Positions 27,235 through 30,799 of a DNA stretch of 64,000 nucleotides are shown piece by piece (the stretch's first letter is position 1; each line of letters starts with the position of its first letter). This stretch comes from Escherichia phage vB_EcoM_JE01. Position numbers and translations under genes: made by a program. The notes under the pieces were generated by a model, which worked only from the letters and a program-made list of their open reading frames with translations, did no database searches and had not been told where the DNA came from. The DNA lies in sequence record PQ471460.1. The stretch is one strand, 5' to 3'.

Positions 27235-27530
27235 TTAAACTATCGGCAGTAATATTATCTATTGGTCTTCTAGTTGGTTGTTCGACAAAGCCTCTAGAAG
27301 TAAAGAAAGAAACAGTTCATCCTAATTGGCCTGTGCAAATAAAGTCATATGACGAAGCTAAACTATCTTGGCAAGTTAAAGTTATTGATGGTAAAGCTTG
27401 GGTCGGTATGCCATTTGAAGATTCCCAGGAATTTCGCATTTGGCTTAATGATGTAAAACGATATGTACATGACCAGAAAACTATGATATGTTATTATCGT
27501 CAAGAGCTAAAAGAGGATAAATGTAAATGA
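27231..27530 (+). CDS. o-spanin lipoprotein (Rz1-like; T4 pseT.2 equivalent)
   Basis: signal peptide with lipobox LLVGC; C-terminal Cys residues; start overlaps i-spanin stop. Confidence 0.75.
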   Translation: MIKLSAVILSIGLLVGCSTKPLEVKKETVHPNWPVQIKSYDEAKLSWQVKVIDGKAWVGMPFEDSQEFRIWLNDVKRYVHDQKTMICYYRQELKEDKCK

Positions 27531-27757
27531 TTTCATGGCATCAATTTGAACATCTCAAAGGATTGATTTATGAATCCGAGATGGCTGCAATGATTTATGG
27601 ACGCCAGATTCAACGATTAGAATCTTTGCCTCCAACTAATGATGTTTTATTAGCTCAATCACGCGCTAATCTTAAAAATGAATACCAAAATAAGTGGGGT
27701 AAAGCATCTAAAGACCTGCATGATTATATTCAATCATTGGTTGAGAAAAATAAATGA
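27527..27757 (+). CDS. hypothetical protein
   Basis: 76 aa ORF, overlapping start/stop with neighbours. Confidence 0.45.
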   Translation: MISWHQFEHLKGLIYESEMAAMIYGRQIQRLESLPPTNDVLLAQSRANLKNEYQNKWGKASKDLHDYIQSLVEKNK

Positions 27758-28074
27758 AAACTCTGCTAGAGCGTTATATTGAATGCTCGGACCGTTACAT
27801 TGATGCATGCCATGGTGCAGTATACATGGATTTGGACCGCGGAATAGTATTAAATGATGAAGACCCTGCGAAAGCTTTAGATGATGCTGGTAAAGCTCTA
27901 CGAAAAGAAGCAAAAGCTCGTGGACTTGATATGTATCAGCTTAAAAATCACATGATAAAATTTATTTCATCTAATGTTCAGAGCAAATCAGTGAATCAAT
28001 CAACAGCTGAAGTGTATAAAGAGCGACGTGAGCATAATATTCGTATTCTTGAAGTTTTCTTAGGAATTAAATGA
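27754..28074 (+). CDS. hypothetical protein
   Basis: 106 aa ORF. Confidence 0.45.
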
Positions 28075-28976
28075 TGAAAAAGATTATTTTGACTATTGGT
28101 TGTCCTGGTTCTGGCAAGAGTACTTGGGCTCGTGAATTTATTGCTAAAAATCCTGGATTTTATAATATCAATCGTGATGATTATCGTCAATCCATCATGG
28201 GTCATGAAGAACGTGACGAGTACAAGTATACCAAAAAGAAAGAAGGCATTGTGACCGGTATGCAGTTTGATACCGCGAAGAGTATTCTGTACGGCGGTGA
28301 TTCTGTCAAGGGAGTAATTATTTCAGACACTAACTTGAATCCTGAACGTCGCCTAGCATGGGAAACTTTTGCCAAAGAATACGGCTGGAAAGTTGAATAT
28401 AAAGTGTTTGATGTTCCTTGGACTGAATTGGTTAAACGTAACTCAAAACGTGGAACTAAAGCAGTACCAATTGATGTTTTACGCTCAATGTATAAAAGCA
28501 TGCGAGAGTATCTCGGTCTTCCGGTATACAAAGGGACTCCTGGTAAACCAAAAGCTGCAATCTTTGACCTTGATGGAACACTAGCTATTCATACATCTCG
28601 GGGCCCATACGAATTAGATAAATTATCAACCGACACTCCAAACGAAATGGTTGTACAATATCTGAAGATGCTTCATCACTCGGGTTATGAGATTATTACT
28701 GTAAGCGGACGTGAATCTGGCACCGAAAATGCTAAGTTAAAATATTATGTTATGACACGTGAGTGGCTTTTACAAAACGACATTCCGTTTAATTTGCATA
28801 TCCAACGCAAACAAGGTGATACTCGTAAAGATGATGTAGTTAAAGAAGAAATTTTCTGGAAACACATTGCGCCTAATTACGATGTTAAACTTGCAGTTGA
28901 TGACCGAAACCAAGTCGTTGAGATGTGGCGTCGTATCGGTGTTGAATGCTGGCAAGTTAACCATGGTGATTTTTAA
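28071..28976 (+). CDS. pseT: polynucleotide 5'-kinase/3'-phosphatase
   Basis: [39 protein letters not shown]… matches T4 PNK (301 aa; true start probably 28074). Confidence 0.95.
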
Positions 28977-29173
28977 TGGCTTTGCATCATGAAACTTGGG
29001 CTATTGTTATTGTAAATAGCGGTTTAGTTGGTACTAGTAATGGGCAATTTTGTGTATTCACTAGTGAAATTAGAGCTTGGGAGGAATGTCTTAAATTAAG
29101 AGAAAAGAATCCTGATGTTGAACTAACAGTAAAGAAAACTAAACTGCCTTTACCATGGAAAACTTATGAATAA
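28976..29173 (+). CDS. hypothetical protein
   Basis: 65 aa ORF. Confidence 0.4.
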   Translation: MALHHETWAIVIVNSGLVGTSNGQFCVFTSEIRAWEECLKLREKNPDVELTVKKTKLPLPWKTYE

Positions 29174-29366
29174 CATAGAAAAGATTTATCGACTTTGTGA
29201 TAAAATTGAAAAAGAAAAGAAATATCTATTTTGTTTATGGCCTATTGTTGATGGAAGAGTAGGCTTAGATGTTCTTGATTATGAAACAGAAGACAAAGTA
29301 GATGGTTCAGTTTTTGATAACGCTTTGGATGTTATTGATTGGCTTGAAGAAAATTATGTGAGGTAA
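29166..29366 (+). CDS. hypothetical protein
   Basis: 66 aa ORF. Confidence 0.4.
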   Translation: MNNIEKIYRLCDKIEKEKKYLFCLWPIVDGRVGLDVLDYETEDKVDGSVFDNALDVIDWLEENYVR

Positions 29367-29368
29367 AT

Positions 29369-29644
29369 ATGTTTCCGACTTATTCTAAAATCGTAGAAGT
29401 AGTGTTTAGCCAAATTATCGCTAATAATATGTTTGAAAAGCTTGATACCGCAGCTGAGCTTCGAATCCACGCTCAAGTGACTCATGTATTGAACGCTTTG
29501 CTTCCAGACCAAGTGGATTCTATTGCAATTACGCTGTATCCAGGTTCCGCGCATATCATTGTCGTATTTGGTCTTGATGCTGAGTTAGTTATCAAGGGCG
29601 ATATTCGCTTTGAATCACAGACATCAGAATTCAAAGCAATTTAA
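29369..29644 (+). CDS. hypothetical protein
   Basis: 91 aa ORF. Confidence 0.4.
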   Translation: MFPTYSKIVEVVFSQIIANNMFEKLDTAAELRIHAQVTHVLNALLPDQVDSIAITLYPGSAHIIVVFGLDAELVIKGDIRFESQTSEFKAI

Positions 29645-29706
29645 CAGTTTACTTTACGATAGAGTTGTGATATTATAGCTCTACCAAAACAAATGAGGAA
29701 ATTGAA

Positions 29707-30234
29707 ATGAGCGAATGGTTTGAAGAAGGTAAGGTTTATCGCTTTAAAGCTGGATATAAAGATATTTTTAATGAAACTTGCGGGGCTAATAAACGAATTG
29801 CCCAGTTTATTGGGGAAAATTCATTTAAAGTAAAAATAGATCCTGCGAAAAATGTTATTAGCATTAAACGCGAAATTGATGATTGTTGGTATAAAGCTGT
29901 TGATGTAATGGGTGAATCCTATAAAGTTAGCCCGTTATTTTCAATTGCCTATATGTTAGAATATTCTTTTTTCGAAGAAGTTCAAAAAGATGATTCTGTC
30001 AGTAAATTTGAAATTAAAGCTGATAAAGAAATTAAGTGGAAAGTAGTAGGTATTACTGGTTGTATGTTCTATATCTATGCTCAAACTGATACGAAGGAAG
30101 AAGCTAAACAGAAAGCTCTAGAATATCTTGAAGAGTATGAAGAAGGTCCGGTAATGATTACTCAAGATGCTGAATTAGTTTCTGTCAAATTAGTTAAAAA
30201 CGTTGAAAGTAAGGAGCTAGGATCAACATGCTAA
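29707..30234 (+). CDS. hypothetical protein
   Basis: 175 aa ORF with SD. Confidence 0.5.
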   Translation: MSEWFEEGKVYRFKAGYKDIFNETCGANKRIAQFIGENSFKVKIDPAKNVISIKREIDDCWYKAVDVMGESYKVSPLFSIAYMLEYSFFEEVQKDDSVSKFEIKADKEIKWKVVGITGCMFYIYAQTDTKEEAKQKALEYLEEYEEGPVMITQDAELVSVKLVKNVESKELGSTC

Positions 30235-30464
30235 GTGAAAAACCAATTACTGTTAAAGAATTCCAAGAAAAAGTTAAACTATTTGCTCAAGAATTGGTAA
30301 ATAAGGTTTCTGAACGATTTCCTGAAACGTCGGTTCGTGTTATTACCGAAACTCCTCGTTCAGTATTAGTAATTGTGAATCCAGGTGATGGTGACCAAAT
30401 AACACATCTTAAACTGGATTTTGATGGATTAGTTGAAGCACAAAGGGTGTATGGCGTACTATGA
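30228..30464 (+). CDS. hypothetical protein
   Basis: 78 aa ORF. Confidence 0.45.
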   Translation: MLSEKPITVKEFQEKVKLFAQELVNKVSERFPETSVRVITETPRSVLVIVNPGDGDQITHLKLDFDGLVEAQRVYGVL

Positions 30465-30799
30465 TGAATTTAACTGATATAATTGATAATTGTCTTGAAA
30501 ATGATACTGGCGATCATAGAGCGCTTGATTCTGAAACAGCTCAGTTCATTAGAATAACTTTAATGAACGATACTCTAGTGAATAGTATTCATCCTTCTGT
30601 GTATGATGCTATTATTGTGACGAAGTACCCAGTTGAGCTTCACAAAAAGATGGCTGGTGCAATTTTTATTGATAAGAAAAACCGCTTTAAAGACGGGCAG
30701 AATATAATTAGTTCTGTTATTAAAAGTATAACTAAACTTCGTCACGAAATTTATCGTGTTGAAACTGCTAAATCTGCTTATCTGGTGATTATGAAATGA
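30461..30799 (+). CDS. hypothetical protein
   Basis: 112 aa ORF. Confidence 0.45.
   Translation: MMNLTDIIDNCLENDTGDHRALDSETAQFIRITLMNDTLVNSIHPSVYDAIIVTKYPVELHKKMAGAIFIDKKNRFKDGQNIISSVIKSITKLRHEIYRVETAKSAYLVIMK

Follow-up and report, generated by a model that had tools for sequence, protein, structure and literature searches.

Why does the early gene block around pseT in a T4-like phage hold more small open reading frames (ORFs) than the same block of T4, and what do the additional genes encode? The question was raised by Escherichia phage vB_EcoM_JE01 (sequence record PQ471460.1), of which we analysed a stretch of 64,000 nucleotides (nt), hereafter the window; all coordinates are positions in it. 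An earlier note, made from the sequence alone, had counted two ORFs of 76 and 106 amino acids (aa) between the spanin pair and pseT and six (65, 66, 91, 175, 78 and 112 aa) between pseT and cd. It had set against these three pseT.x and five cd.x ORFs for T4, and had supposed that at least one unit in each block was additional or replaced. The ORF list bears out both counts, and the T4 record does list three pseT.x and five cd.x genes. Exactly one ORF per block is extra and none is replaced. The two are the 106-aa ORF ahead of pseT and the 175-aa ORF between cd.3 and cd.2, which we call ORF106 and ORF175. We consider it probable that both are ancestral accessory genes that T4 has lost, ORF106 encoding a small binding protein and ORF175 an early modulator with a GoF-like N-terminal domain.

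These ORFs belong to the alc-pseT-cd early block of a Tequatrovirus (T4-like phage), read here on the strand of T4 counter-clockwise early transcription, and all ORFs of the block lie on the + strand. DNA alignments and tblastn searches of the window proteins against the T4 record gave one-to-one partners, at 83–100% identity, for pseT.1, pseT, cd.5, cd.4, cd.3, cd.2 and cd.1. The order in T4 is alc, pseT.3, pseT.2, pseT.1, pseT, cd.5, cd.4, cd.3, an early promoter, cd.2, cd.1 and cd. By the same two methods, ORF106 and ORF175 have no T4 counterpart, and clean whole-gene gaps stand in their places. The gene-by-gene alignment with T4 that the earlier note had proposed thus does not yield a partner for every ORF. 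In the record of phage PP01, a close relative whose genes bear T4 names, exactly these two ORFs are called 'hypothetical protein' amid named pseT.x and cd.x genes. Neither gene is new: both appear as hypothetical proteins in hundreds of records, and as RB32ORF217c (ORF106) and RB32ORF214c (ORF175) in that of RB14. The start/stop-overlapping layout described for the block is found at most joints, where neighbouring ORFs share 1–8 nt. It breaks at two: cd.4 and cd.3 stand 2 nt apart, and ORF175 is preceded by a spacer of 62 nt that bears a promoter.

ORF106 is widespread beyond the window. It occurs in 704 phage records, at 37–100% identity and in several Tevenvirinae genera, and 44 homologues are present in the protein database. 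Every genome checked carries the homologue in the same pseT-proximal block. Immediately after it comes pseT in Tequatrovirus, in EcWhh-1 (Dhakavirus), in VR25 (Gaprivervirus) and in MHG19, an unclassified Yersinia phage, and the two genes also adjoin in WilhelmHis and KarlGJung; in phage F2, whose gene content is Mosigvirus-like, a 63-aa ORF stands between the two. Its identity drops from 99% to 37%, and this divergence is in step with that of the neighbouring genes. When a 200-nt probe spanning the T4 pseT.1/pseT junction was used to sample 33 records with full coverage, a contiguous junction of the T4 type was seen in only 4 (two T4 records, Pu-Krd-SF2 and AV120), and the other 29 contain an insert of 300–320 nt. 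AV120 is a pig-waste isolate that has neither ORF106 nor ORF175, so the T4 arrangement is a natural one and not a laboratory artefact.

The T4 junction itself suggests how the gene may have gone. It reads ...AAATAA followed directly by ATGAAAAAGATT, which is the left flank fused to the right flank through the 7-nt ATGAAAA that occurs in the window both at the start of ORF106 and from the second codon of pseT onward. Such a junction is what recombination, or slippage, between short direct repeats would leave if ORF106 was deleted in the T4 lineage. In T2, ORF106 has a 2-nt deletion in codons 6–7 that leaves the peptide MKTLLMLY followed by a stop (records PV648363 and PV958097). All that these records annotate of it is an 82-aa remainder starting at an internal ATG, and T2 is also without cd.5, cd.4 and ORF175.

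The distribution of ORF175 is patchier. Among 498 records matching a probe of the cd.3/cd.2 junction, 303 (~61%) carry it, at 93–99% identity, and a sample of that junction showed an insert of ~520 nt in 37 of 59. The window protein is 98.9% identical to the RB32 protein, which occupies the same slot between cd.3 and cd.2. That slot is filled in Dhakavirus by a 184-aa protein with 28–30% identity, and in Gaprivervirus by a 180-aa protein that matches the ORF175-family profile with an hhalign probability of 100%. No gene of the block diverges faster between genera: ORF175 retains 28% identity, as against 45–81% for its neighbours. Its natural absence from ~39% of the junction-probe records suggests that it is dispensable.

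Both genes have the properties of resident phage genes. The 5.1-kb stretch that contains them is 93–98% identical to the 40 best-matching Tequatrovirus genomes listed (e.g., Nami, EcNP1 and PP01), and in another 449 records the match spans no less than 80% of its length. Each of the eight ORFs hits a PHROG family with E<=1e-37; ORF106 does so over its full length (phrog_2364, E 2e-58, residues 1–106 against profile positions 1–105 of 105), and ORF175 matches phrog_3710 with E 5.6e-55. The ratio of non-synonymous to synonymous substitution rates (dN/dS, Nei-Gojobori) is below 1 for both, at 0.08–0.5 for ORF106 and 0.07–0.23 for ORF175 within Tequatrovirus, and both are under purifying selection. 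Each has a ribosome-binding site or is translationally coupled. Their GC content and GC at third codon positions (GC3) equal those of neighbouring genes (0.37 and 0.24, respectively, for ORF106), which marks their composition as native. A search for repeats, direct or inverted, found none at the flanks of either ORF, and hidden Markov model searches found no paralogue of either family among all window ORFs.

Given the syntenic homologues in other genera, we infer, as the simplest reading, that both genes were present ancestrally and have since been lost repeatedly, by T4 among others. ORF106 and ORF175 would already have stood in the block in a common ancestor of several Tevenvirinae genera, and T4 would have shed each by a precise whole-gene deletion. 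The description of these units as 'additional' is therefore right as far as T4 is concerned, but its polarity appears to be reversed, with the genes at the same positions in other Tevenvirinae genera and T4 as the loser. Recent foreign acquisition was also considered, and was rejected on the native composition and the syntenic orthologues.

A functional lead for ORF175 came from profile comparison. Beside its own family, the protein gave a weak match to the PHROG goF family (E 0.006). An alignment of the ORF175 family compared by hhalign with T4 GoF alone reached a probability of 69%. When the GoF side was widened to an alignment of six members, from Tequatrovirus, Mosigvirus, Gaprivervirus, Dhakavirus and an Aeromonas phage, the probability rose to 96.7% (E 3.3e-10), with residues 1–95 aligned to GoF residues 1–92. 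In control comparisons, the probability was 0.2% with the ORF106 family, which is unrelated, and never exceeded 0.7% in 20 rounds of column shuffling. The motifs FE..K.Y.F, N...A...G..PF.V and E..FF.EV..P are common to ORF175 and GoF. On this profile evidence, ORF175 and T4 GoF have homologous N-terminal domains. The predicted architecture comprises this GoF-like domain (~residues 1–95, 29707–29991), a variable linker with indel-rich alignment columns and low model confidence (predicted local distance difference test, pLDDT) at residues 96–108, and an unrelated C-terminal domain. For the last, hhalign detected no similarity to the C-terminal domain of GoF; it would be a small beta-alpha domain of its own.

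Kim et al. 2025 (PMC12152347) describe GoF (ComC-alpha), Frd.2 and MotB.1 as Tevenvirinae early proteins with a predicted five-stranded LSm/SH3-like N-terminal domain, followed by a flexible linker and then a variable C-terminal domain; an ORF175-type subgroup is not named in the text accessible to us. As judged from its sequence, ORF175 resembles this architecture and is nearest to GoF. In both proteins, an N-terminal domain of ~90 residues is joined through a variable linker to a small C-terminal one. Both are confined to T4-like phages and placed behind an early promoter, and ORF175, like the members of that family, is probably non-essential. They differ in that the C-terminal domains are unrelated, in length (141 aa for GoF, 175 for ORF175) and in locus (39.2/cef as opposed to cd.3/cd.2), and T4 has no ORF175. 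Among the relatives RB32ORF214c, JS98 gp212 and VR7 gp232 (phrog_3710 and phrog_5804), ORF175 is an ordinary member of the Tequatrovirus group. By analogy with GoF, its role is most likely that of an early RNA-related modulator, a non-essential protein that would act on RNA or on an RNA-handling host protein.

Several points weigh against this account. Compared with the single sequences of Frd.2 (window 16862–17227) and MotB.1, ORF175 has no detectable similarity. Its AlphaFold2 model is poor, with a mean pLDDT of 53.5, too low for a fold search; the five strands that it places in the N-terminal half (residues 10–13, 40–45, 50–55, 60–63 and 89–92) are at best suggestive. According to Kim et al. 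(PMC12152347), only the gain-of-function variant GoF(D25Y) stabilises gene 41 mRNA, which makes the analogy mechanistically weak. For both genes, moreover, the choice of loss over gain rests on synteny across genera and not on a rooted phylogeny.

Other searches with ORF175 added little, and sequence matches beyond T4-like phages were almost nil. No functional domain was found in Pfam, NCBIfam or PADLOC, whether with the protein or with its family alignment, and PDB sequence profiles gave nothing below E 0.09 for either ORF. When 1.84 billion representatives were searched exhaustively with phmmer, the only hits were fragments of the protein itself and one artefact, a 1345-aa protein of perfect tandem repeats whose score sums 17 weak stretches. 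We also came across a protein on a 644-nt ENA contig in which the N-terminal region of gp59 is joined to ORF175 residues 5–51 at a shared 'FEED'; this chimera is almost certainly an assembly artefact. The unannotated record of Aeromonas phage AsFcp_1 has adjacent ORFs of 117 and 175 aa (13–366 and 359–886 of the stretch examined) that appear to show GoF-like N-terminal motifs by eye, of which the 175-aa one was aligned; the pair suggests a tandem duplication of the GoF-like domain family outside coliphages.

The surroundings of ORF175 are in keeping with early expression. The promoter in the spacer ahead of it is nearly identical to a T4 stretch with the annotated early promoter Pe133295, the mismatches being two upstream of the -35 element and one in the spacer between the promoter elements. 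ORF175 is the first gene past this promoter, 30 nt downstream, and from its position it is likely to be expressed in the first minutes of infection. In T4, the same promoter and ribosome-binding site run straight into cd.2. The start codon of cd.2 in the window lies inside the ORF175 stop (ATGCTAA), a 7-nt overlap.

A stem-loop at the 3' end of cd.3 precedes this promoter, and the arrangement recalls the promoter-early stem-loop (PeSL) elements implicated in ORF shuffling in T4-type phages (Arbiol et al. 2010, PMC2839356; Comeau et al. 2014, PMC4122927). The window promoter fits the PeSL consensus TTTACW-N17-TAYWAT (PMC4122927), the ORF175 indel abuts a stem-loop and early promoter, and the region around the gene is a plastic one made up of non-essential early ORFs. 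Unlike a PeSL-flanked cassette, ORF175 has the motif upstream only: neither promoter nor stem-loop was found at its downstream side, where it overlaps cd.2. The ORF106 indel is likewise different, having no promoter motif and being bounded by the 7-nt microhomology.

ORF106 has a clearer predicted structure. No functional domain was found in Pfam, NCBIfam, PADLOC or PDB sequences, and the DUF6388 label that one record carries was not reproduced by HMMER against Pfam in any of 24 family members. An AlphaFold2 model built from 24 homologues (pLDDT 88; predicted template modelling score, pTM, 0.79) predicts a soluble four-helix bundle with helices at residues 2–24, 38–55, 60–76 and 82–102. Searches with this model gave no informative fold match, only generic helical bundles and the RB69 and Yersinia phage orthologues (in BFVD, RB69ORF231c and a protein of Yersinia phage fHe-Yen9-01). 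The invariant positions comprise a C-terminal LGIK motif and about 27 others. Alleles range from 95 to 108 aa and differ mainly in the loop between helices 1 and 2, through indels of 6–9 residues; the disordered loop of the model, residues 23–34, coincides with the indel-rich alignment columns. This loop (27813–27855, residues about 20–34) is the sole hypervariable, indel-rich and low-confidence part of the protein, and most non-synonymous change between alleles appears to fall in it. It may set binding specificity. In comparison with RB32ORF217c and RB69ORF231c (phrog_2364), ORF106 is an ordinary full-length member, at the same position as in RB14, and no difference was seen. Overlaps of 4 nt join ORF106 to pseT.1 upstream and pseT downstream, and through these overlapping stop and start codons it would be translated from the same long early/middle transcript as both neighbours.

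Published mutagenesis bears directly on this family. A HIDEN-SEQ preprint (10.1101/2025.11.20.689424) mutagenised Bas37, which is phage KarlGJung, and reported log2 fold changes (log2FC) as the fitness of insertion mutants relative to K-12. The ORF106 orthologue bas37_0056, which is 64% identical over its full length, was classed as 'Non-essential' in K-12, with 27/30 sites hit, and gave log2FC values of +0.08 in CFT073, -0.02 in CFE299, -0.32 in CFE303 and +0.14 in CFE331 (adjusted p = 1 in each; 10.1101/2025.11.20.689424). In these data, the orthologue is thus without fitness effect in five hosts, K-12 and four uropathogenic E. coli (UPEC) strains. We take ORF106, with modest confidence, for a small binding protein, its target being relevant only in hosts other than those of the published screen. 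It carries no catalytic motif and most likely binds a protein partner of importance in certain hosts only.

A counter-defence function for one or both proteins, as inhibitors or decoys of a strain-specific host immune system, retained by phages that encounter this system and lost by T4 and T2 during propagation on hosts without it, is a possibility that we take seriously without favouring it. It would suit genes that are small and polymorphic, probably early and apparently non-essential, and the rapid divergence of ORF175 and the hypervariable loop of ORF106 also speak for it. ORF106 is, moreover, inactivated in both classical laboratory phages, T4 and T2, and neighbouring genes are required in a host-specific manner. 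In the HIDEN-SEQ data, insertions in bas37_0053, the cd.4 orthologue, were depleted in CFE303 (log2FC -5.84, adjusted p = 0) and gave -2.26 in CFE299 (adjusted p = 0.31), and pseT of Bas37 was needed in CFE299 (-1.90, adjusted p = 0; 10.1101/2025.11.20.689424). However, the ORF106 orthologue has no conditional phenotype in the four UPEC strains, neither protein resembles any characterised one except GoF, and the natural isolate AV120 is also without both genes, so that their loss is not specific to laboratory passage. The sequences of ORF106 and ORF175 are absent from the supplements of the accessory-gene screen of Silas et al. (PMC12373910), and we found no literature on pseT.1 or on the RB32ORF names. 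The earlier note had placed all of these small early genes in the class from which T4 anti-defence and host-takeover factors have emerged; published transposon data support this for cd.4 and pseT but not for the ORF106 orthologue, and for the rest it is a prior only.

The tight linkage of ORF106 to pseT could instead mean that it is a dedicated partner of PseT, a specificity or assembly factor in tRNA repair against anticodon nucleases. The 4-nt stop/start overlap with pseT recurs in Tequatrovirus, Dhakavirus, Gaprivervirus and MHG19, and the family is confined to genomes with pseT. Yet T4 is without ORF106 and T2 has it frameshifted, with pseT intact in both; CFE299 requires the pseT of Bas37 and tolerates insertions in the ORF106 orthologue; and in F2 the intervening 63-aa ORF separates the two genes. 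T4 Pnk functions without such a partner. An obligatory Pnk cofactor is rejected on the loss in T4, the frameshift in T2 and the neutral CFE299 insertions, and we consider any dedicated partnership improbable.

Far less credible is the proposal that the extra ORFs are free-standing homing endonucleases or mobile insertions. Records of the BASEL collection label bas35_0056 and bas35_0051 of WilhelmHis (1067–1369 and 3001–3528 of the stretch examined) and bas37_0056 of KarlGJung (2871–3182) as 'putative homing endonuclease'; the label is probably given by convention to ORFs that T4 does not have. Each ORF is a whole-gene indel relative to T4, ORF175 is patchy at ~61%, and genuine homing endonucleases do occur in this hotspot: VR25 has a MobE-like gene on the opposite strand after pseT (4619–5344 of the stretch examined). 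Searches of 24 ORF106-family and 16 ORF175-family members against Pfam (E<=1) found no GIY-YIG, HNH, LAGLIDADG, His-Cys box, PD-(D/E)xK, EDxHD or other nuclease domain, and those of NCBIfam, PADLOC and PDB sequences were also negative. ORF106 is a 106-aa four-helix bundle in its predicted fold, and the N-terminal domain of ORF175 is GoF-like. There are no flanking repeats, composition is native, and the genes keep the same position in at least four genera while diverging like their neighbours. ORF106 is near-universal and syntenic rather than sporadic; ORF175, though patchy, has syntenic diverged homologues in two other genera. We reject the endonuclease reading for both ORFs on the lack of a nuclease domain in either family.

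Short ORFs in an AT-rich genome, and the frameshifted T2 copy, might suggest that neither ORF is a real gene and that annotation has picked up chance frames or pseudogenes decaying within spacer DNA. This can be dismissed with near certainty because both are conserved, with full-length intact orthologues in 704 (ORF106) and 303 (ORF175) records, dN/dS well below 1, strong PHROG matches, a confident fold for ORF106, and ribosome-binding sites or translational coupling.

Table 1. Features of the alc-pseT-cd block in the window, in order of position
Feature	Positions	Strand	Basis
rnlA	25162-26322	+	ORF list
alc	26384-26890	+	ORF list
pseT.3, spanin pair	26881-27234	+	ORF list
pseT.2, spanin pair	27231-27530	+	ORF list
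pseT.1, 76 aa, present in T4	27527-27757	+	100% identity to T4 PseT.1 over 97% of length; phrog_2347; annotated pseT.1 in PP01
ORF106, 106 aa, extra relative to T4; RB32ORF217c in RB14 record	27754-28074	+	phrog_2364
ATGAAAA microhomology, left copy, start of ORF106	27754-27760	+	T4 alignment
pseT, polynucleotide kinase/phosphatase, divergent allele	28071-28976	+	83% to T4 PseT, 100% to PP01 PseT
ATGAAAA microhomology, right copy, pseT second codon onward	28074-28080	+	T4 alignment
cd.5, 65 aa	28976-29173	+	95% to T4 Cd.5; Pfam T4_Y13H E 1.6e-32
cd.4, 66 aa	29166-29366	+	95% to T4 Cd.4; 98.5% to bas37_0053
cd.3, 91 aa	29369-29644	+	97% to T4 Cd.3; Pfam DUF7355 E 1.7e-32
Stem-loop at cd.3 3' end (GCTTTGAAT...ATTCAAAGC)	29607-29637	+	RNA fold of 29560-29660, z = -2.2
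Early promoter TTTACT-17 nt-TATTAT, upstream TG	29648-29676	+	promoter scan
ORF175, 175 aa, extra relative to T4; RB32ORF214c in RB14 record	29707-30234	+	phrog_3710
cd.2, 78 aa	30228-30464	+	94% to T4 Cd.2; Pfam DUF7320
cd.1, 112 aa	30461-30799	+	98% to T4 Cd.1; phrog_2063
cd	30796-31377	+	99% to T4 Cd

Several neighbouring genes deserve mention in their own right. The pseT gene of the window is a mosaic divergent allele, with 77–83% identity to those of T4, T2, WilhelmHis, AV120 and KarlGJung, and the genes on both sides of it are 95–100% identical to the T4 versions. Cd.4 is a candidate host-range or counter-defence factor; the HIDEN-SEQ authors built a knock-out of bas37_0053, and the gene is absent from their main text (10.1101/2025.11.20.689424). 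The cd.3 orthologue is annotated as 'toxin' in phage BW-1 (1291–1566 of the stretch examined); for Cd.3 of the window, we find only DUF7355 in Pfam and 'unknown function' in PHROG. In Dhakavirus, Gaprivervirus and MHG19, an ORF of ~160–172 aa lies directly upstream of the ORF106 homologue, at the position of pseT.1 in the window (512–1030, 3022–3504 and 3019–3504, respectively, of the stretches examined); it is another variable unit of the block. In MHG19, a pseT.1-like ORF with 38% identity is still present further upstream. Phage F2 carries a DAHP synthase gene (phospho-2-dehydro-3-deoxyheptonate aldolase) just before cd (5984–6976 of the stretch examined).

A bolder extension can be stated, which we regard as tentative and rather unlikely to hold in full. 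ORF175 would represent a further GoF-type, LSm-like branch absent from T4, made early, that binds RNA or an RNA-handling factor and protects phage transcripts in particular hosts, possibly against RNA-targeting defence, and ORF106 would be a separate, strain-specific binder.

The finding itself is an ordinary one: it is a known kind of accessory-gene polymorphism, and the window carries the common T-even gene set. Our additions are small, namely a GoF-like identity for ORF175, evidence that speaks against an endonuclease and against a Pnk cofactor, and a pointer to the published data on the host-specific requirement for cd.4 and pseT. It is T4, the annotation reference, that is the outlier, and gene lists based on T4 miss a near-universal neighbour of pseT. 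ORF175 can be annotated as GoF-like, which no examined record does, and the label 'putative homing endonuclease' should be dropped from both genes. Since the block holds two experimentally flagged host-range genes, pseT and cd.4, the presence or absence of ORF175 within it offers a cheap handle on the function of a GoF-type protein. If ORF175 does prove to be an RNA-protecting protein of the GoF type, its natural presence in ~61% and absence from ~39% of the Tequatrovirus records that match the junction probe would provide a ready-made system for the wild-type function of the GoF family.

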